Sequence record: PV467749.1 | Direction: 5' to 3' (one strand) | Origin: a phage | DNA length: 64,000 nt | Part shown: piece after piece, positions 21,369 through 44,151 of the stretch | How the letters are laid out: the number at the start of each line of letters is the position of its first letter | Position numbering within the stretch: the stretch's first letter is position 1 | Notes under the pieces: generated by a model | What the model was told of the DNA's origin: nothing | Seen by the model: the letters and a program-made list of their open reading frames with translations, nothing else | Database searches by the model: none | Program-made: the position numbers and the translations under genes

Positions 21369-22142
21369 TTAAATTTTCTCAAGGAACATGTTTTCTGCCA
21401 TTGACTCCCAATCATATGGAAATTTATTATACAGACCAGCGATCAGTACTGGCATACGCAGAGAAGGTGAACGCAGCTTTTCTTCGTTGTTCAGCATCCA
21501 GTTTAAGATAGCTTTACAACCATTTTTATTAACCCCATTGTTCTCAAGAATATTAGTCTTGTTCATGATGTTCTCAATGTGAATCATAACTTCTTCGTTA
21601 GTGAACAGTTGAAGATCAACAAAGATACTACGAGTAATCAGTGCATCAATGTGTGGTGCTAAACTGCTTTTACCTTTAGCAATCTGTGACAGGTTTTTGT
21701 TCGTCAGGAAGATTACCTTCCCACGGAATTCAAACTGCTTAGGAATACCCTGCTGTTCCAGGTACTTCCCAGAAGTTGCATAAGATACAACCCGCTTCTC
21801 TGAAGTATCCAGTACTGCTTTGAGCAAGTCAATGTTGGTTTCATCGCTGAAGATATCAACGTCATCAAGTAACAGTACTGAAGCGGCATGACGTGAACGA
21901 TACAGTGCTTCGTACAAACCCATAGTGGTTACTTTACCGCTGATCTTTTTGTAGTCGATTTCAAAGTTATCATCAGCTTTCTGTAAACGCTGGTCAACGT
22001 TGTAAGTTTTACCAACACCACCTTTACCAGATACAATCAGGGAATTGATTGAATTAGCTTGGGTATCAAGTAAACATTCCAAAGCTGCCATCATGCTGTT
22101 GAAGTTCTTTTCGATTTGGATTGCTTTCTCTGTACGGGTCAT
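21369..22142 (-). CDS. P-loop NTPase (Walker A SGKGGVGKT, Walker B VLLLDDVD)
   Basis: 257-aa ORF. Deviant Walker A KGGxGKT as in ParA/MinD-type ATPases. A hhhhDD Walker B is present. SD GAGAGGA. It is preceded by the promoter/terminator module at 22150-22205. Confidence 0.75.
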   Translation of the reverse strand: MTRTEKAIQIEKNFNSMMAALECLLDTQANSINSLIVSGKGGVGKTYNVDQRLQKADDNFEIDYKKISGKVTTMGLYEALYRSRHAASVLLLDDVDIFSDETNIDLLKAVLDTSEKRVVSYATSGKYLEQQGIPKQFEFRGKVIFLTNKNLSQIAKGKSSLAPHIDALITRSIFVDLQLFTNEEVMIHIENIMNKTNILENNGVNKNGCKAILNWMLNNEEKLRSPSLRMPVLIAGLYNKFPYDWESMAENMFLEKI

Positions 22143-22184
22143 GTATTCATCCTCTCGTCTTGATGAAATAATTATAGCAAAAAG

Positions 22185-22204
22185 GGCTGACCGAAGTCAA
22201 CCCT
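22185..22204 (-). terminator. UUCG-tetraloop hairpin terminator (GGGUUGACUUCGGUCAGCCC on minus strand) fused to extended -10 promoter (attata at 22172-22177 = TATAAT on minus)
   Basis: gggctgaccgaagtcaaccc is flanked by A5 and T6. The minus-strand reading GGGTTGACTtcggtcagccctttttGCTATAAT gives TTGACT-18-TGcTATAAT. Confidence 0.75.
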
Positions 22205-22610
22205 TTTTTCTTTCAATCAAACATAGTCTACCAGAATGTACCATGCGATGGTGATTAGAACAAAGAATCATACACTTTCGAATTTCATCTTTGATAGCAT
22301 CTCGACTTTTACTGAACATAGAACTTGGTGTATGTTCTTTGGTATTAGGGTCAAGATGGTGAAAGTCTAAACATTCTGGATACTTCATCATACAAACACT
22401 ACAACCATAAAATGATTTAACTCTGGTCATGAAATCTTTATTTTTTCTTTTGATTTCTTCAAGTTTTTTGACATCAGTTTTTTTATTTCTGGTTTTCTTA
22501 CTGGTAATATTACTACAACCTTTGCATGTATTTCTATGTTTCCCAGTATCACTTCTTATACCAAATTCACTAATGTCTTTTTCAATATTACACGTGATAC
22601 ACTTCTTCAT
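22197..22610 (-). CDS. HNH endonuclease
   Basis: 137 aa with Cys clusters (CITCN, CKGC, CSVC) and the HNH motif HHLDPNTKEH...CSNHHRMVH. Confidence 0.75.
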   Translation of the reverse strand: MKKCITCNIEKDISEFGIRSDTGKHRNTCKGCSNITSKKTRNKKTDVKKLEEIKRKNKDFMTRVKSFYGCSVCMMKYPECLDFHHLDPNTKEHTPSSMFSKSRDAIKDEIRKCMILCSNHHRMVHSGRLCLIERKKG

Positions 22611-23744: not shown

Positions 23745-24347
23745 TTATTTCAAAGAATCATAGTAAGCAGTGTCAAAGATTGGAGTCATAATAACATAGT
23801 CAATACGGTCAATGTAAGTTGAACTCCACATTTCTGGTTTGTCATAAAATTGACGCTCGCGTTCATTCATACGAGTCAGTACTTCTTCCAATTTACTACG
23901 TGAAGCCATCAATGTATTACGCGATCCATAAGTGAAGTACTCAGTCCATTGATATTCATATTCAGTACTGATAGATTGAATAGTACCATCTTTGAAATGA
24001 GCTAAGGCATATCCTTTCTCTACAAAGTTATCAGGTGGAAGAACACTATCTGGATTAGTTTTCAATGCTTTGGTTAACTTTTCTTTAATTTCAGTTAACG
24101 TGCATACTGAACGAATGTTCTTCAGGTTTGATACTTGAAAATCACTGTACTTTCCAAAGAAAAATACACGCCAATCTTTAGGTTCATTATCAGATACGGT
24201 AATATTCGGATGATGGGCGAGTAAACGAAGAAGGCCAGCTTTGTGACCGTTAATGTAGATCTCATGGATGTGGTTAGCAGTTTTCTTAAAAGTAATCATG
24301 ACAATTCCTCGATTGTGGGATGAGAAGTTCATCCCCTTGATAAACAT
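23745..24347 (-). CDS. Hypothetical protein
   Basis: 200-aa ORF with no recognisable motif. Confidence 0.6.
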   Translation of the reverse strand: MFIKGMNFSSHNRGIVMITFKKTANHIHEIYINGHKAGLLRLLAHHPNITVSDNEPKDWRVFFFGKYSDFQVSNLKNIRSVCTLTEIKEKLTKALKTNPDSVLPPDNFVEKGYALAHFKDGTIQSISTEYEYQWTEYFTYGSRNTLMASRSKLEEVLTRMNERERQFYDKPEMWSSTYIDRIDYVIMTPIFDTAYYDSLK

Positions 24348-24374
24348 TATACAGTACTGAATGAGTTTGTCAAC

Positions 24375-26065: not shown

Positions 26066-26368
26066 CTACATATATTCTAAGAATAATGTATTAGCTTCGT
26101 CTATGTTCTTAAGATAATACATGTAATACAGATTTGGTTGTCCGTCTTTTGAACTCAAATCAAAGTACTTTAAACTATGCACCTTCATGACAAAAACAAA
26201 TAATGACTTAAAACCAATCTCACCGTACTTAATAAACAGTTCATCTAAATGAATGTAACTCTTAGTTTCAGATAATTCCTTCACATCATCTTCAATTTCT
26301 TGTAAGCGAAGTTTACCGATTAAGTTTTCAAATGAACGCATGATGTTGTTCCTTATGCTGGTACACAA
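26066..26368 (-). CDS. Hypothetical protein
   Basis: 100-aa ORF. Confidence 0.5.
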   Translation of the reverse strand: MCTSIRNNIMRSFENLIGKLRLQEIEDDVKELSETKSYIHLDELFIKYGEIGFKSLFVFVMKVHSLKYFDLSSKDGQPNLYYMYYLKNIDEANTLFLEYM

Positions 26369-26766: not shown

Positions 26767-26805
26767 GTTTGCCTCCAGTAGTTGATGAAATGATTATAGC
26801 AAAAA

Positions 26806-26825
26806 GGGCCGACCGAAGTCAACCC
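26806..26825 (-). terminator. UUCG-hairpin terminator/promoter module (copy 2)
   Basis: gttgatgaaatgattatagcaaaaagggccgaccgaagtcaaccc tttt. It is near-identical to the element at 22160-22205. Confidence 0.75.
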
Positions 26826-26832
26826 TTTTCTT

Positions 26833-27207
26833 TTATATTTTACATGTCATGTCTGGTTTTGGCTTTTCATTCTTTGGCTTTTCAAATGGATTTGGCTTAG
26901 GGGACTTTTTATCTTTGTCATCTTTAGCTTTCTTTTTGTTTTCTTTTTTATCCGATTTGTCAGCTTTGTCTTTCTTATCTTTTGAATCTTTGTCAGCTTT
27001 AGATTGTGGTTCCTCACATACAGCAGTTTTTGGCTCCGGCATATCACATGAGTTATCCACTGGTTTAATGAACTCTTTACAGTTGTAGAAGTATAAACTT
27101 TCATTGGTAGTAAGATTGTGGAATCTAAAGGTATTTTCACCATTAGTATATACTTTCTTAGTACTCTCAATATCATTACACATTGCAACTGTGTCACCGG
27201 AATTCAT
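26833..27207 (-). CDS. Hypothetical protein with Lys/Asp-rich low-complexity C-terminus
   Basis: 124 aa. C-terminal KADKDSKDKKDKADKSDKKENKKKAKDDKDKK. Confidence 0.55.
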   Translation of the reverse strand: MNSGDTVAMCNDIESTKKVYTNGENTFRFHNLTTNESLYFYNCKEFIKPVDNSCDMPEPKTAVCEEPQSKADKDSKDKKDKADKSDKKENKKKAKDDKDKKSPKPNPFEKPKNEKPKPDMTCKI

Positions 27208-27445: not shown

Positions 27446-27487
27446 TGCATTACCTCTTATAAAACCCTCTACAATATTTACAAAAAA

Positions 27488-27507
27488 AGGTTGACCGAAG
27501 TCAACCT
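27488..27507. terminator. Perfect palindromic hairpin terminator AGGTTGACCGAAGTCAACCT (copy 3, bidirectional)
   Basis: Perfect 8-bp stem with a CGAA/UUCG loop, flanked by A7 and T4. Confidence 0.75.
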
Positions 27508-27516
27508 TTTAAATGT

Positions 27517-29028
27517 TTATTTTTTATCCTTTCCAACACCACGGTCGTACTCTTTGAATGAGTTATCAAGTGTAGTTAGTGCATACTCATATGCTTCTGG
27601 TGATTCAATGTCAACATCATCTGCACCATTTACTAAATCAGCCCAAGCCTTTTGAAGTTTACGAGCATTGTTACCAACATTATCTTTAATCCAACTAATA
27701 TTTTTGTTGATACTTTTACTATCAGCACCTGCTTTTTTACCAATCTCGGATATCCACATCATTAACTTTTGAAGTTCATGAATTGATTTATCAGTCATTT
27801 CAAGATGTTCTTCTTCCATACCGTCAGAATCAGATGAACCAACGTCAATTCCATGTTTAGCTAATAGTTTACCAAGTTCAAAGAATGCAGCTTCAGCAGG
27901 GAAGTCATAACCTTTGTCTTTGTAGTTATTCCATGCACTATCAAACTCGTCAACAAAACGGTTAGCATAATCTGGATTTTTAACTAATGCTTTATATACT
28001 GCCATTGCATGTTCAAAACCTTCTTTATCTGACCCAAACTCTTCCATCTCAGGACGATGAATATATCCATCCATATCAACGGTATCAGGTAGATCTTCTT
28101 GTTCAGGTTCTACATCTTTCTGTTCAACTGCACCTTCTTCATCTGCACGCTTTAGATAACCATCTGGTGTTACCTTCTCACCATGTTCTGCTTCATACTT
28201 TTTCATAGTGTTGAATGCAGCATCCATAGCTGTTACGAAGCGACTTTTCTCACCTTGTACATAAGATTTAAGTGCACTGTTAACTGCATCTGATACGAGC
28301 TTAACCTTATCGTCTTTACCTTCTAAACGGTTTTCAAGTTTAGCCAGTACATTCTTGATTTGCTGGGCATTAGCACGGTCTGCTTTACCAATACTATCAA
28401 AAGTTTTAAGAATACCATCAAGACTTGCTTCACCCTGTTCAGGTTCTTTCGAATCTTCTTTGTGTGTACCTTCAAGTGCACGCATGATAGTACTGAATAC
28501 TTCAGTGGGTTCAGTACTCTTATTACCTTTCATTGCATCAAGTACAGCTTGTGCTTTACCTTTGAGTTCTTCTTTAGGAACTGCCTGTAGTGCTTTGACA
28601 ATACCCTGAATCAACTGTGGTTTGTTAGCAAAGATCTTACCTAAGTTATCAGATAACTCTTTAACAGGGTTAGCTGCTTTAGGAGCTTCTGGTTTTGGTT
28701 CTTCTTTAGGAACTGCTTGTTCTTTCTCAGCACGTTCCATATCAGCAAGGCGTTGTTTCTGTGTTGCGTTAAGAAGACCTAATGAGTTAACATAACGTAG
28801 CTTTTCTAGCTCAGTCATGTTCTCAGTACTCTTAACTTCACCTGCTTCTGCGTTTGCCTTACCAGCTAAACCTGTCCCTTGATTACGTGAACCACGTGAC
28901 CCCTGTCCTGCTTGGTAGCTATTTTGACGACGATTGCGTTCACTCCATTTATCAGAGTGACCTGCCATGTTCCCGCCATTTTTATCAGTAAATTGACCTG
29001 GCATTTGATTTCTCTCCATAGATTTCAT
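27517..29028 (-). CDS. Large highly charged hypothetical protein (503 aa)
   Basis: Long ORF. It is Lys/Glu-rich and helix-like. The N-terminal region LEKLRYVNSLGLLNATQKQRL resembles KYLDSLGLLKPDQS of 29861..30259. Confidence 0.7.
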   Translation of the reverse strand: MKSMERNQMPGQFTDKNGGNMAGHSDKWSERNRRQNSYQAGQGSRGSRNQGTGLAGKANAEAGEVKSTENMTELEKLRYVNSLGLLNATQKQRLADMERAEKEQAVPKEEPKPEAPKAANPVKELSDNLGKIFANKPQLIQGIVKALQAVPKEELKGKAQAVLDAMKGNKSTEPTEVFSTIMRALEGTHKEDSKEPEQGEASLDGILKTFDSIGKADRANAQQIKNVLAKLENRLEGKDDKVKLVSDAVNSALKSYVQGEKSRFVTAMDAAFNTMKKYEAEHGEKVTPDGYLKRADEEGAVEQKDVEPEQEDLPDTVDMDGYIHRPEMEEFGSDKEGFEHAMAVYKALVKNPDYANRFVDEFDSAWNNYKDKGYDFPAEAAFFELGKLLAKHGIDVGSSDSDGMEEEHLEMTDKSIHELQKLMMWISEIGKKAGADSKSINKNISWIKDNVGNNARKLQKAWADLVNGADDVDIESPEAYEYALTTLDNSFKEYDRGVGKDKK

Positions 29029-29069
29029 ATTGTTTATTCTCTATGACTATATTTATAGTATAAAGAAAA

Positions 29070-29089
29070 GGTTGACCGAAGTCAACCCT
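29070..29089 (-). terminator. UUCG-hairpin terminator/promoter module (copy 4)
   Basis: aaaggttgaccgaagtcaaccc. The minus-strand reading continues into TTTATACTATAAAT upstream of the 27517..29028 gene. Confidence 0.7.
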
Positions 29090-29109
29090 ATTTTCACTGT
29101 ACTATACCA

Positions 29110-29436
29110 TTAGTAGTTACAGTCAGCTTTCGCTGTGAATGTTTTACTTTCACCTCGTTGTGTGGTGATTCGTCCGAGTAAAGTAGTTTTGTCAATAGTC
29201 ATTGTAGTTAGTACTGGAACATTACCTTCAAAGTCAATAGCTTTGAAATTGTAGGTGGTTTCATTCTCCACTACACTTGGACCAAAGAGTTCATATGTGT
29301 TGATTTCAAGTGTGTCACCATCTGAACGCAACAGTGTGCAGTCCAGATTAGGAGTAGCCAGTACTGGGAAAGCCAAACACATCATCATTACAATAATTAA
29401 TTTCATTTCACTTCTCCTGTTTTTTCTTAGGATCAA
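29110..29436 (-). CDS. Secreted protein (signal peptide)
   Basis: 108 aa. N-terminus MKLIIVMMMCLAFPVLATPNLDC. Confidence 0.6.
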   Translation of the reverse strand: MILRKNRRSEMKLIIVMMMCLAFPVLATPNLDCTLLRSDGDTLEINTYELFGPSVVENETTYNFKAIDFEGNVPVLTTMTIDKTTLLGRITTQRGESKTFTAKADCNY

Positions 29437-29665
29437 CCAATGACCAAATGAAGAATCCGAGAATTACAAGTACCCACAGAATCATGATAAAGAAAGCAAA
29501 CAGTACAATAGTATTTGTCAAAAAGAAATACAATAGAATGTTCGACCCAATACTACATACAATCAATGCAGCTTCATGTTTAACAACACGAATGGCTGTA
29601 ATGAGTGCGGGAAGAAATCCGACAAATAACAGTACTAATGCATATAGTGATAATGTTTCAGCCAT
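29408..29665 (-). CDS. Small membrane protein
   Basis: 85 aa with 2-3 TM helices and C-terminal KKKQEK. Confidence 0.55.
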   Translation of the reverse strand: MAETLSLYALVLLFVGFLPALITAIRVVKHEAALIVCSIGSNILLYFFLTNTIVLFAFFIMILWVLVILGFFIWSLVDPKKKQEK

Positions 29666-29847
29666 GATATCCCTTATTTGGTTTGTTCAACACTAGGTGT
29701 ATTGATATAGGTGTCAATTGAATAACATACTGTACCCACTACAACAGCAGCGATTAGGGCAGTGATGATGAATTTAGTACCTTGCATAATTTAATACCTC
29801 ACGTTGTTTGTATTTTGTATCACTTGATGAAAATATTATACGACAAA

Positions 29848-29867
29848 GGGCTGACTGAAGTCAACCC
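29848..29867 (-). terminator. UUCG-hairpin terminator/promoter module (copy 5, loop variant CUGA)
   Basis: gggctgactgaagtcaacccc. The minus-strand downstream sequence TTTGTCGTATAATATTTTCATC carries a -10. Confidence 0.7.
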
Positions 29868-30259
29868 CTTTTAATTATTTTTTTAAACTTATGTTTTTCG
29901 CCTTCAATAGAGTTCACGATGTCATCATGAATCTTGCGAAGGTTATGAGTTTTCTTTAGTGCTTCATGTAGTGCACGGAATGCTGCGTGTACTGTTGCCT
30001 TGAAGTGCTCTTTAGGAGTCACTTTAAGTTTCTCAATGATATCACGTACATAAATTGGATGATCTTCAAATACACGATTCAATTCATGGCCTAGTGATTC
30101 TAGACTGAAAGCTTTTTCACGTGAAGGACGATCATGTGCAAGACTTTGGTCAGGCTTTAGTAGACCTAGTGAATCAAGATACTTATGCTTATGTGCATTA
30201 TCAATTCCAGAAATATCCACATCATGCGATGGATCTTTCTTATTCCATTTATCAACCAT
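29861..30259 (-). CDS. Hypothetical protein sharing SLGLL N-terminal motif with the 503-aa protein
   Basis: 132 aa. Contains KHKYLDSLGLLKPDQS. Confidence 0.6.
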   Translation of the reverse strand: MVDKWNKKDPSHDVDISGIDNAHKHKYLDSLGLLKPDQSLAHDRPSREKAFSLESLGHELNRVFEDHPIYVRDIIEKLKVTPKEHFKATVHAAFRALHEALKKTHNLRKIHDDIVNSIEGEKHKFKKIIKRG

Positions 30260-31400: not shown

Positions 31401-31454
31401 TAATTAAACCCCACATAAAGTAAAAGGGATGGCATATTACCAACCCTATATCTT

Positions 31455-31986: not shown

Positions 31987-32036
31987 TTTATTACCTTATA
32001 AACAAGAACAGGAATCCTTTTACGGATTCCTATAAT

Positions 32037-33400: not shown

Positions 33401-33442
33401 AATTAAAATCCCCAGTATTTGATGAAATAATTATAACAAAAA

Positions 33443-33462
33443 AGGCTGACCGAAGTCAACCT
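33443..33462 (-). terminator. UUCG-hairpin terminator/promoter module (copy 6)
   Basis: tttgatgaaataattataacaaaaaaggctgaccgaagtcaacct tt. The stretch 33418-33462 is near-identical to the 22160-22204 module. Confidence 0.75.
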
Positions 33463-33677
33463 TTATTTTGAAGTTCTTGAACTAATTGTCGTACTTCTTT
33501 GATGTTATGACACTGCTTTACAGTGAAGTAATCATACTTACGACCATAGGTTCTTGGGTCATCACCTTCCATATACTGCTGCACATCAAAGATTTGTAAG
33601 TAGGGATGCTGCATAACACGAATGTTATCACATTGGTAAATCAACATATGTTTAGTCCTCATATTTACACAAGCCAC
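33456..33677 (-). CDS. Hypothetical protein
   Basis: 73-aa ORF. Confidence 0.45.
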   Translation of the reverse strand: MACVNMRTKHMLIYQCDNIRVMQHPYLQIFDVQQYMEGDDPRTYGRKYDYFTVKQCHNIKEVRQLVQELQNKG

Positions 33678-35163: not shown

Positions 35164-35221
35164 GTTTTATATCCTCAAGTTTAAGTATTAAGTTTCAGAC
35201 TACAAGAACCATTATACAGTA

Positions 35222-35464
35222 CTACAAACGTTTGTCAACAGGTTTTTCTTCAATAAGCATAAGATAACTGAAGACGAATAGTAATACAGATGCCATATCA
35301 ATAACCGTAAAGCTCACGGGAATGATAATAGACACTAGAACGAGTGCCACGTTTAGCAAGAATACAGTAGTGATATCCACCAGCTTTCGTTTAGTGGCTA
35401 CTGCTACTAGTGTAGGGTAGAACATAAACAATAATGCAACTACAAAACTCAATACTAGATACAT
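35222..35464 (-). CDS. Small membrane protein
   Basis: 80 aa with 2-3 TM helices. Confidence 0.55.
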   Translation of the reverse strand: MYLVLSFVVALLFMFYPTLVAVATKRKLVDITTVFLLNVALVLVSIIIPVSFTVIDMASVLLFVFSYLMLIEEKPVDKRL

Positions 35465-39079: not shown

Positions 39080-39296
39080 AGTTAATTCCTCATTTAATTT
39101 AAAAGGGTGGAAACGCAGTGACGAGTACGATTATGCTGTCTTTCCTTTCACTGCATTCCCTTTGATATAAACATTATACAGTACTGATATCTTATGTCAA
39201 GTATTAATCACCAAAAATCATCAGATACCCAAACCAACCCACACAGACGACTAAGCTAACAATACCAAAGACAATCTCTAAAGTCATGTTGCATCC

Positions 39297-40979: not shown

Positions 40980-41560
40980 TCGCTTCTAATACTACGTATT
41001 CTACGCGAATGAATCATAACTGTCAAGGACTTTTAATATTGACGGGATTTGAGGAAGGGATTTTTCTTCCCCCCGCACGGAGGGAAATTTGACGCTGATG
41101 GTATCAGAGCTATTGCATTGAAGATTACTCATAACGAGTGCGAAAGCGGGTCATCCTGTTTCTCTCTACTTCAGTTTCATATGACGGTCTACACTTTTAA
41201 ACATAGTGTATCTTCATTAAGTATCTATGCAATCAAATACTTAATGTGAGTACTCAAATTTTGGACGCAACTTTCCTGTACAAAATTCGATAACTCTCCC
41301 TTAGATAATTCGTAAGGTGTTATCCTTATATGTCTATCGAGGAACCACCAGCTATCCTAACGTGGTTCTTTATACAGCCGCATTGCCGTGAGGGGTTCAA
41401 ACTATGCCCACATCTAACGGGTTTCTTTTGCTGTTCGCTACAATGAAAAGCTCATCTATCCTTTACATTTTCAAGTGAAGTAGGGGAAGATTGTCAGTAC
41501 CAGTACTGTCATTGTGATTGTACATAGATCATTGTATCACCATTAATAAATTTGTCCCAT
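40980..41560. ncRNA. Long ORF-free structured region (candidate ncRNA / regulatory element), strand undetermined
   Basis: About 580 nt without a credible ORF, in an otherwise gap-free genome. It contains strong local hairpins (ggaaccaccagctatcctaacgtggttc; ttcttccccccgcacggagggaa). Confidence 0.35.
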
Positions 41561-41566
41561 AAAAAA

Positions 41567-41587
41567 AGGCTGACCGAAGTCAACCCT
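41567..41587 (-). terminator. UUCG-hairpin terminator (copy 7) downstream of sigma-factor gene
   Basis: aaaaaaaggctgaccgaagtcaaccc ttt, immediately 3' of the stop at 41594. Confidence 0.75.
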
Positions 41588-41593
41588 TTAATC

Positions 41594-42559
41594 TTAAAAA
41601 TCTTCGAACTCATAACCTTTTGTCTTAACCATCTTACGCAGTCGTTCCATTGCTTCAGAGTACTTACGGTGCAATGAAGAACGAGCAGTCATGACCTTAC
41701 CCTTCTCATCTTCAAAACCACTCTCAATGATTTCTCGTAGCGTTTCTGGTTCAGAATAAGAACCAATACCATGTACACGTTCAATCAATTCACGGTCTTT
41801 GGCAGATAGGTTACTCATCATTTCTGCAATACTTTGTACCAGTGGGGTACTGACAGTTTCTACGCCTAAGTTGTAATCAGGTTCAACTGAAGTAACAATG
41901 TCAGATAATGTACTTTCTGAATCATTACTCATTTTCATATTCAATGCTACATAAGTGTTATTGTAAGTTAGACAATTCTTAACGTGTTGAATCTCAATAC
42001 CAGTCTCTTTTGACACCATCTCAGGAGTTGGGTATTTACCATGTTTCCTTTGATACTCTTCTACACAACGTTTCACATAAATGTTATTAACACTCATATA
42101 ACGTGGGAAATGCACTAGATAATTAGCATCCGCACTTTCGTTATAGATTGTCATGTACACAGTTGTTGTTGCATATGTAATGAACTTAACATTTTTGGTA
42201 GTGTCGAACGTATGAATTGCTCGCATTAAACCTTCAACACCATAAGAAATCTTATCTTCAAATGGGATAAAACATGTACACTTACGTGCAACACTTACTA
42301 CCATTGGATAGTTGTAGCGAACCAAAAGGTCAATGTTCTTTTCAACGTCAATACCATCACGCACTGCTTGGATGAGCATTTCATTCGTTATCCCTTTAGG
42401 GCGAGTTAAGCTGATACCTGTTTTTGGTTTCTCAAACTTGTGACCGTCATGTTCTTCTTCTTCGACGGAATCAAGAGCCTCTAATACGTTGACTTCTTCA
42501 CTAGCAAAACACTCATCCAGTACTTCTTCAGAAATTGCATTTAAATCAAGCTTTTTCAC
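41594..42559 (-). CDS. Sigma-70 family RNA polymerase sigma factor (phage-encoded)
   Basis: 321 aa. Region-2-like segment KFITYATTTVYMTIYNESADANYLVHFPRYM. Region-4-like HTH LSAKDRELIERVHGIGSYSEPETLREIIE. Confidence 0.7.
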   Translation of the reverse strand: MKKLDLNAISEEVLDECFASEEVNVLEALDSVEEEEHDGHKFEKPKTGISLTRPKGITNEMLIQAVRDGIDVEKNIDLLVRYNYPMVVSVARKCTCFIPFEDKISYGVEGLMRAIHTFDTTKNVKFITYATTTVYMTIYNESADANYLVHFPRYMSVNNIYVKRCVEEYQRKHGKYPTPEMVSKETGIEIQHVKNCLTYNNTYVALNMKMSNDSESTLSDIVTSVEPDYNLGVETVSTPLVQSIAEMMSNLSAKDRELIERVHGIGSYSEPETLREIIESGFEDEKGKVMTARSSLHRKYSEAMERLRKMVKTKGYEFEDF

Positions 42560-44092: not shown

Positions 44093-44151
44093 AAGTTCCT
44101 TACCATTTCCCAGTTTTGATGTAATAATTATATATGACTCAATAACTCACG

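Follow-up and report, generated by a model that had tools for sequence, protein, structure and literature searches.

Between two small genes of a phage genome, at positions 22150-22205 of the 64,000-nucleotide sequence PV467749.1 (hereafter the window, meaning the whole stretch of DNA analysed), lies a hairpin-forming repeat whose minus-strand reading is gaaagaaaaaaGGGTTGACTTCGGTCAGCCCtttttgcTATAATtatttcatcaagacgagaggatgaatacATG; the question raised by this locus is whether one short element can serve both to end a transcription unit and to begin the next. The initial annotation had described the element as a UUCG-tetraloop terminator whose stem supplies the -35 box of an extended -10 promoter. 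Our analysis points, with a probability which we put at about 0.8, to cassettes of the promoter-early stem-loop (PeSL) type, by means of which a 121Q/RaK2-like jumbo coliphage would use the sigma-70 RNA polymerase of its host for early genes; each cassette would reset transcription and would also be a preferred joint for recombination. The window shares 98.5% identity with Escherichia phage WPEC3 and ~90% with phage 121Q, an Asteriusvirus from the group of RaK2-like jumbo myoviruses, whose genomes measure roughly 350-385 kb. Judged by this identity, the phage is a 121Q/RaK2-like jumbo coliphage of Asteriusvirus, a genus that is not placed in Straboviridae.

When the window was searched for GGGTTGACTTCGGTCAGCCC with up to three mismatches, exactly seven matches were found, all on the minus strand, as against none in 100 shuffled sequences; a chance origin of the repeats (seven copies versus 0 expected) was rejected. 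At least seven near-identical minus-strand copies had been claimed, and this count held, with five of the coordinates exact and two (22185 and 29070, given for 22184 and 29069) off by one base; the positions are collected in Table 1. Also borne out was a version of ~45 bp said to be repeated three times, the quoted 42-mer being present at 22162, 26784 and 33421 with 0, 2 and 3 mismatches, respectively. A repeat finder recovered these element families as well, with repeats of up to 71 nt. TATAATnATTTCATCAA is present at four of the elements, and a fifth copy of it, free of any hairpin, lies at 44116-44132.

All seven elements are intergenic or overlap the stop codon upstream, with neighbouring open reading frames (ORFs) co-oriented on the minus strand, and the copies span 19.4 kb of small hypothetical ORFs (22.2 to 41.6 kb). 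Genes between 19 and 45 kb are nearly all small hypothetical ORFs on one strand, among them a sigma-factor-like gene at 41594-42559, for which the WPEC3 annotation reads 'RNA polymerase sigma factor FliA'. The equivalent region of phage CBB contains a sigma factor and many RpoD-like promoters located after UP-like elements, and has been proposed to be early (PMC5259590). Seven of the eight exact element copies of 121Q are confined to ~14 kb of its 348-kb genome, and those of RaK2 all fall within ~25 kb. The proposal that the element partitions a putative early region agrees with its recurrence between co-oriented small genes, where it delimits units of 0.7-8 kb.

The sense RNA of all seven copies folds as an 8-bp hairpin, with free energies of -13.9 to -19.8 kcal/mol and z-scores of -3.4 to -5.8 (46-nt segments). 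The loop is UUCG in six copies and UUCA at 29848, where the U-tract is also poor (UUUGUCGU), and the number of G-U pairs per copy ranges from 0 to 2; the stem length first described was thus correct, and its single G-U pair, invariant UUCG loop and uniform U-tract were not. C(UUCG)G is an unusually stable tetraloop. The layout of an intrinsic (Rho-independent) terminator, namely a stem rich in G+C (5-14 bp) with a loop of 3-8 nt and an adjoining U-rich tract, placed in sense orientation after a gene, was found in six of the seven copies, the U-tract of copy 5 being weak. When Rfam 15 was applied at gathering thresholds to the whole window, no family matched at any of the seven sites; the only matches in the window were tRNAs and a group I intron, away from the elements.

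A promoter scan returned TTGACT-N18-TATAAT, matching 11 of 12 positions of the sigma-70 consensus, at 22184, 26806, 29848 and 33443, and TTGACT-N17-TATACT (10 of 12) at 29069. In these five composite copies, TTGACT is made up of the 5' stem arm and the first loop base, and the 17-18 nt spacer of the 3' arm and U-tract; in copy 1, the 18 bases are accounted for by three loop bases, the eight bases of the 3' arm and TTTTTGC. The -10 box is preceded by a TG extension in three of the five (22184, 26806 and 33443), and TG is an addition rather than a defining feature, a good -35 box also being there. No usable -10 box lies at the right spacing in the copies at 27488 and 41567. They carry the longest U-tracts of the set (7 U) and lie after a 503-aa gene and after the sigma-like gene, respectively, and for these three reasons both are read as plain terminators. 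The fused architecture first described, with its N18 spacer, TG and TATAAT, is therefore retained for five copies, in four of which the spacer and -10 box are as stated. Stop codons lie inside the hairpin or 0-21 nt before it, the TGA within TTGAC being the stop codon of the upstream ORF at three copies (22184, 29848 and 33443), and in every composite copy a Shine-Dalgarno sequence (SD) and ATG follow 20-45 nt after the -10 box. Because the -35 motif ends in C and its complement starts with G, the closing pair of C(UUCG)G is created, so that hardly any base of the module is left unconstrained by one or other of the two functions.

In order to compare the element across phages, an exact-pattern scan of IMG/VR was carried out, which gave 47 loci, and a 66-nt module was compared by BLAST with GenBank phages, which gave 180 records. 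Among these records, the hosts of RaK2-like phages were Escherichia, Klebsiella, Salmonella, Cronobacter, Serratia, Erwinia and Yersinia, with 6-11 places per genome; the module was also found in KVP40-like Vibrio phages and Aeromonas phage 65 (Straboviridae) and in Certrevirus (Vequintavirinae). A hairpin scan tolerating one mismatch in TTGAC caught mainly the antisense strand (CTGAC, CGAA loop), and the comparative set was restricted to the 142 unique hairpins with exact TTGAC in the 5' arm, from 50 loci in other phages.

A -10-like box occurs at the correct offset in 115 of these 142 hairpins, as against 11-40 at shifted control offsets, and in 108 of the 115 the spacer is 17-18 nt. TG is present at -15/-14 in 88 of the 115, compared with 0-3 in the controls, and a pyrimidine (Y) stands six bases after the -10 box in 96%, with an A one base further on in 83%. 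Y-A about 7 nt past a -10 box corresponds to the position and base preference for transcription start by E. coli RNA polymerase. The consensus upstream of the family is AT-rich (aaaaAAa). These regularities bear on the alternative that the elements are terminators only, the genome being AT-rich enough for TTGAC in the stem and TATAAT-like bases beyond it to be incidental, with no initiation. The hairpins are listed solely as terminators in the record of phage G17 and in the CBB paper, and two window copies have no -10 box. In addition, when the exact 20-mer was sought in 185,579 genomes of bacteria and archaea, nine matches were obtained, with roughly one expected by chance by our own estimate; these look mostly like plain terminators with long T-tracts, which indicates that the element is not a general bacterial signal. 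Incidental bases would not, however, be expected to yield a -10 box and TG at fixed offsets far above the controls, Y-A conserved exactly 7 nt past the -10 box, an invariant 5' arm beside a variable loop and 3' arm, or an SD and ATG 20-45 nt downstream in all composite copies, and we consider termination as the sole function very unlikely.

Conservation of the stem was then considered at the level of RNA. In 64 distinct sequences, a set chosen for pairing, 96.9% of cells were paired, a value reached in none of 500 shuffles. The outer three stem pairs showed double (compensatory) changes in 19, 9 and 8 sequences, the variants including GGG/CCC, AGG/CCU, UGG/CCA, UAC/GUA and CUA/UAG, among others; the five TTGAC pairs varied on the 3' side only, to G-U, and the TTGAC arm itself was fixed. 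A second scan was anchored on the 3' side only (YYY-T-tract-G-N-TAnnnT), with sequences matching the fetch pattern removed, and 24 of its 25 sense hairpins carried exact TTGAC, with 16 different loops that included UNCG and GNRA types. A frequent T-G position, which keeps the RNA stem, makes the antisense fold weaker than the sense fold (-14.1 versus -19.8 kcal/mol) and turns the antisense TTGAC into CTGAC; the element would accordingly be one-directional.

A different class of explanation places the inverted repeat in DNA, either as an operator at the -35 box for a dimeric regulator of phage or host, or as an extruded hairpin promoter as in phage N4. The repeat does overlap the -35 box, a frequent repressor site, and the copies at 27488 and 29069 are perfect palindromes. 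Against this, about three quarters of the family break the DNA palindrome by T-G, which is paired only as G-U in the sense RNA; the antisense fold is the weaker one; the loops are mostly of the RNA-stabilising UNCG and GNRA tetraloop types, with a U-tract after the stem; and the outer stem bases are free to change while pairing is kept, unlike a sequence-specific protein site. As the inverted repeat is not conserved at the DNA level, the operator or N4-type cruciform was rejected as scarcely credible.

We propose that, in RNA from upstream promoters, the element would form an 8-bp G+C-rich hairpin with a C(UUCG)G tetraloop followed by 4-7 U, acting as an intrinsic terminator or attenuator that would end or damp the upstream unit. 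In duplex DNA the same bases would be a promoter: the A-tract upstream would be UP-element-like, stem bases 4-8 plus the first loop base would serve as the -35 hexamer TTGACT, and the remaining loop, 3' arm and U-tract would provide the 17-18 nt spacer, its final bases supplying the TG extension. The -10 box would come next, followed by a start at the conserved Y-A 7 nt beyond, a short SD-bearing leader and then the ORF; each cassette would thereby reset transcription for the following gene or gene group. Sharing ~45-70 bp, the cassettes would also be preferred homologous-recombination joints for gene insertion, deletion and exchange between related phages.

The initial annotation went further in suggesting that folding of the nascent terminator could modulate access to the -35 box. 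This finds no support: the hairpin is in RNA from upstream promoters, sigma-70 reads duplex DNA, and transcripts from the element's own promoter, with a predicted start ~40 nt downstream of the hairpin, would not include it. A broader functional coupling, in which the nascent hairpin gates the -35 box, or a polymerase terminating ~13 bp upstream of the next +1 restarts at, or occludes, the overlapping promoter, seems to us rather improbable. The geometry fits, the predicted release site being within the promoter (in copy 1, ~13 bp upstream of the predicted +1 at A22164), and it has been reported that E. coli RNA polymerase remains on the DNA once intrinsic termination has occurred and starts again at promoters close by (PMC11347151); coupling via polymerase occupancy or recycling is conceivable. 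The gating version has no mechanism, however, since an RNA hairpin cannot mask duplex DNA; overlap would be expected anyway from genome compaction and cassette-type evolution; and PeSL stem-loops take five positions relative to the promoter (PMC2839356), which argues against one required geometry. With stop codons inside the stem or at most 21 nt from it, a trailing ribosome could, in addition, interfere with hairpin formation.

The sequence following the predicted start is also conserved across phage families, with A at +1 and then UCGAAAC(GAAAC) in many contigs of the RaK2-like, 146-153 kb (Certrevirus-sized) and KVP40-like kinds, and UCAA in the window (22164, 26786 and others); this could reflect shared cassette ancestry or a function of the leader. 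In seven relatives (121Q, CBB-like and other RaK2-like contigs), AGCCCAYAGGGTGC, a small hairpin, lies ~25 nt past the -10 box of some elements, which suggests a conserved non-coding transcript or leader; the motif was sought in the window and is absent there. An extension of the PeSL-type reading would hold that module and leader (Y-A at +1, then AUCGAAAC or AUCAA) form one cassette exchanged among unrelated large phages (RaK2-like, Vequintavirinae, and KVP40-like and Aeromonas Straboviridae), the overlap perhaps serving RNA polymerase handover from the U-tract to the embedded promoter, a relay of termination and restart by which the host enzyme would be retained on the early DNA of the phage; we regard it as decidedly improbable.

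Comparison of the window with WPEC3 produced two alignments that overlap at window positions 22135-22207, which means that WPEC3 has two copies where the window has one. In a three-way alignment, the upstream flank, UUCG loop and leader of window copy 1 match those of WPEC3 copy B, and the window coding sequence from ATGAC onward matches WPEC3 copy A (ACUA loop, TTGACA -35 box); on the evidence of this alignment, the element at 22184 in the window is chimeric, made of parts of both WPEC3 copies, between which a 2.6-kb cassette lies in WPEC3. Five genomes show five arrangements at this 22.2-kb locus, and elements bound every cassette: one element in the window; three in WPEC3, with endoV, the third element, an endonuclease gene and two small ORFs in the 2.6 kb between the outer two; element-endoV-element in EC.P1; three elements and five genes in G17; and, in ph0011, endoV together with a 3.4-kb block containing a DNA adenine methyltransferase, all bounded by three elements. 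Between the orthologues of copies 4 and 5, three small ORFs in the window stand against a 114-nt ORF in G17, and ph0011 has a single element and no cassette. Junctions with three relatives fall inside elements at 22205-22207, 29094/29095 and 29824-29845. This association with gene-cassette indels, like the wide spread of the module in other large phages, had been overlooked in the initial annotation.

The same indels might instead be the work of homing endonucleases, encoded by HNH and other endonuclease ORFs, or of illegitimate recombination at random, with the elements as bystanders. An HNH-like ORF (22197-22610) adjoins copy 1, the WPEC3 insertion contains an endonuclease gene, HNH genes are annotated nearby in relatives, and some junctions are not at elements. 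What speaks for exchange through the elements is that the 22.2-kb junction lies within the shared element and leader, with flanks matching different parental copies, a signature of homologous exchange, and that the 29.1-29.8 kb cassette is bounded by elements yet contains no endonuclease gene, a single element being present in its place in one relative. We therefore judge the bystander account unlikely. Elsewhere in the region, two unrelated terminator-like hairpins without promoter parts, at 31401-31454 and 31987-32036 on the minus strand (GGGTTGGTAATATGCCATCCC plus a T-tract and AGGAATCCGTAAAAGGATTCCT plus a T-tract, respectively), flank a segment which differs from G17 and ph0011.

Several points weigh against the PeSL-type reading as a whole. 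Termination and initiation at the elements are predictions from sequence. Composite copies have short U-tracts (4-6 U, and almost none in copy 5), because TG and the -10 box must follow, and termination may as a result be only partial; and the 18-nt spacer exceeds the optimum by one base. Junctions at 26355, 31400 and 31874, in the same region, lie away from elements, and the genomes compared in pairs have ancestry in common, so the comparisons are not independent events; for these two reasons the enrichment of junctions at elements is treated as qualitative. The 22.2-kb hotspot also holds HNH and other endonuclease genes, which are possible independent drivers of mobility. Lastly, part of the comparative set was ascertained by hairpin sequence, which inflates conservation, a bias that the 3'-anchored scan lessens and does not remove.

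Table 1. Positions of the seven element copies and associated features in the window.
Feature	Extent	Strand	Hairpin	Promoter parts	Leader and context
Copy 1, composite (index)	22143-22215	-	A-tract, then 22184-22203 (GGGTTGAC UUCG GUCAGCCC); -19.8 kcal/mol, z -5.4	-35 TTGACT 22195-22200; U-tract and TG 22178-22183; -10 TATAAT 22171-22176; predicted +1 A22164	SD GAGAGGA; ATG 22142; upstream HNH-like ORF 22197-22610 ends at TGA of TTGAC
Copy 2, composite	26767-26835	-	26806-26825; two G-U pairs; -19.1 kcal/mol	-35 26817-26822; TG-extended -10 TATAAT 26793-26798	Leader CATTTCATCAA; SD GGAGG; ATG 26766
Copy 3, terminator only	27446-27516	-	27488-27507; perfect palindrome AGGTTGAC UUCG GUCAACCU, then 7 U	Poor -10 candidate TAAATA only	Follows 503-aa gene 27517-29028; scored as plus-strand terminator too
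Copy 4, composite	29029-29100	-	29069-29088	-35 29080-29085; 17-nt spacer; -10 TATACT 29057-29062; no TG	Downstream direct repeat bounding the 29.1-29.8 kb cassette; homology breakpoints 29094/29095
Gene cassette, ~750 bp	29089-29847	-			ORFs 29110-29436, 29408-29665 and 29674-29787; bounded by copies 4 and 5
Copy 5, composite	29788-29880	-	29848-29867; UUCA loop; weak U-tract	-35 29859-29864; -10 TATAAT 29835-29840; no TG	Leader TTTTCATCAA; upstream ORF stop is TGA of TTGAC
Copy 6, composite	33401-33475	-	33443-33462; closing pair A-U instead of G-C	-35 33454-33459; TG-extended -10 TATAAT 33430-33435	Leader TATTTCATCAA; SD GGGGA; ATG 33400; upstream ORF stop is TGA of TTGAC
Copy 7, terminator only	41555-41593	-	41567-41586, then 7 U		Directly after sigma-factor-like gene 41594-42559
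Half element	44093-44151	-	Absent	-10 present, no -35	-10 and leader TATAATTATTACATCAA at 44116-44132; SD

Other promoter-like sequences were noted in the window. A hairpin-less family at 24340-24373, 35205-35238 and 39167-39200 on the minus strand reads TTGACA-N16-TATAAT, matching the consensus at 12 of 12 positions, and has a conserved palindrome, CAGTACTG, in the spacer directly before the -10 box, which could be a regulator site. A further hairpin-less promoter, TTGACA-N16-TGCTATAAT at 59643-59655, has the end of its spacer and its -10 box in common with the composite elements. A long imperfect hairpin (GCGGCATC...GACATGCCGC, ~75 nt) at 59609-59757 on the minus strand lies just upstream of this promoter. 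Between 49 and 64 kb, upstream of tRNA genes and small ORFs, a promoter-like motif of the TGATATAAT type without a -35 box, often beside GTACTG, occurs on the minus strand at about 49840-49858, 56940-56961, 57695-57720, 58850-58870, 61803-61830 and 63615-63630, and may represent a different temporal class.

At 56387-56692 on the minus strand, a tRNA gene has its anticodon loop split by a group I intron (RF00028, 99 bits, E 2e-24; Rfam match 56433-56747). When introns were permitted, ARAGORN gave a 76-nt tRNA with a 230-nt intron at this position, and application of the U(-1)/terminal-G splice rule yields the anticodon CAT (Met or Ile2). Phages PBECO4, A4 and SD-1_S14 have an intron-less tRNA-Met at the position of the intron-bearing tRNA, and the full intron-containing stretch was found in only seven phage records, where it is unannotated. 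To our knowledge, no group I intron has been reported from a tRNA gene of a phage. On the plus strand, at least six paralogous genes (3394, 4587, 5843, 10618, 11869 and 14373) have a nearly identical SD and start region, AGGAGGGAATTATGTTACCTTTTGTTAGAAT; in WPEC3 they are annotated as RCC1-like 'regulator of chromosome condensation'.

If the PeSL-type reading is correct, such sites in 121Q/RaK2-like genomes should carry both terminator and promoter marks, which would change the predicted early operon map. The sites would mark the gain and loss of cassettes (endoV, methyltransferase, endonucleases and ORFans) between phages that are 90-99% identical, and the PeSL model of gene shuffling would be extended beyond T4-like phages. 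The module would also offer a compact natural insulator-plus-promoter part for design, and a clean natural substrate for asking if a terminating RNA polymerase reinitiates at an overlapping promoter. Current understanding is not overturned.

The architecture had been presented as a discovery, and corresponds to a published class. In the T4-like phages RB49 and phi1, PeSLs were described as strong sigma-70-like promoters linked to terminating stem-loops, AT-rich upstream, in ORFan-filled hyperplastic regions (Arbiol et al. 2010, PMC2839356); they mediate gene insertion, deletion and replacement, lacZ fusions showed both promoter and terminator activity, mini-circle formation was shown for both phages, and one of the five stem-loop positions overlaps the -35 box (PMC2839356). 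As in RB49 and phi1, the elements of the window combine a promoter and a terminator stem-loop between a stop codon and the next SD and ATG, are present in many copies among small ORFans and have indels at their positions; a sigma-70-like promoter (five of seven copies), a stable stem-loop overlapping the -35 box, multiple copies in a small-gene region and indels at the elements were all found here. The two systems differ in that RB49 and phi1 belong to Straboviridae and the window phage to Asteriusvirus, outside the T4-like lineage, a difference of lineage and not of function. Moreover, RB49 stems are polyG/polyC at variable positions, whereas a single fixed design with TTGAC in the stem and a UUCG loop is used here, and the activity and mini-circles of RB49 and phi1 PeSLs are experimental findings, whereas the window copies are known from their sequence.

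PeSLs were later extended to the T4/PST and KVP40/nt-1 pairs, together with degraded half elements (Comeau et al. 2014, PMC4122927), and the half element at 44093-44151 is comparable to these 'degraded (1/2) PeSLs'. The stem-loop consensus published for KVP40/nt-1, A3-4 G3-loop-C3 T3-4 (PMC4122927), fits AAAGGG[TTGAC..GTCAG]CCCTTT, and KVP40 and VH7D carry near-identical copies of the module, such as GAAAAGGGTTGACTGCGGTCAGCCCTTTCGCGTATTAT, followed by a CATCAA or GAAAC leader. KVP40-like genomes differ, however, in having only 2-4 such copies each by BLAST, and the -35 consensus published for that pair, TTGYVH (PMC4122927), does not match TTGACT, so that the present element is only a possible member of the published set.

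Nearer relatives had been annotated in part. In CBB, GGGTTGACTTCGGTCAGCCC corresponds to the predicted terminators Torf515, Torf518 and Torf520 (Buttimer et al. 2017, PMC5259590, Table S8), and promoter Porf_41 of the same phage is a TTGAC promoter embedded in a hairpin (PMC5259590); in the G17 GenBank record the orthologous hairpins are ARNOLD terminators of -13.5 to -17 kcal/mol. Both sources list terminators and promoters separately and mention neither their overlap nor gene shuffling. In the literature on RaK2, GAP32, 121Q and Asteriusvirus, of which coverage was incomplete, no statement on fused terminator-promoters and no Term-seq or RNA-seq data for this phage group were found, and the fEgEco12 paper contains no promoter or terminator analysis. 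The cassettes also resemble the morons of lambdoid phages, self-contained transcription units that can be added without disturbing neighbouring genes (PMC2839356); morons have regulatory ends that are neither conserved repeats nor believed to bring about insertion, whereas here the ends are a repeated module with junctions inside it. Together these comparisons indicate that the repeats are most suitably classed as PeSL-type cassettes, in a lineage for which no explicit description of the class had been given, the hairpins themselves having already been annotated as terminators in G17 and CBB.

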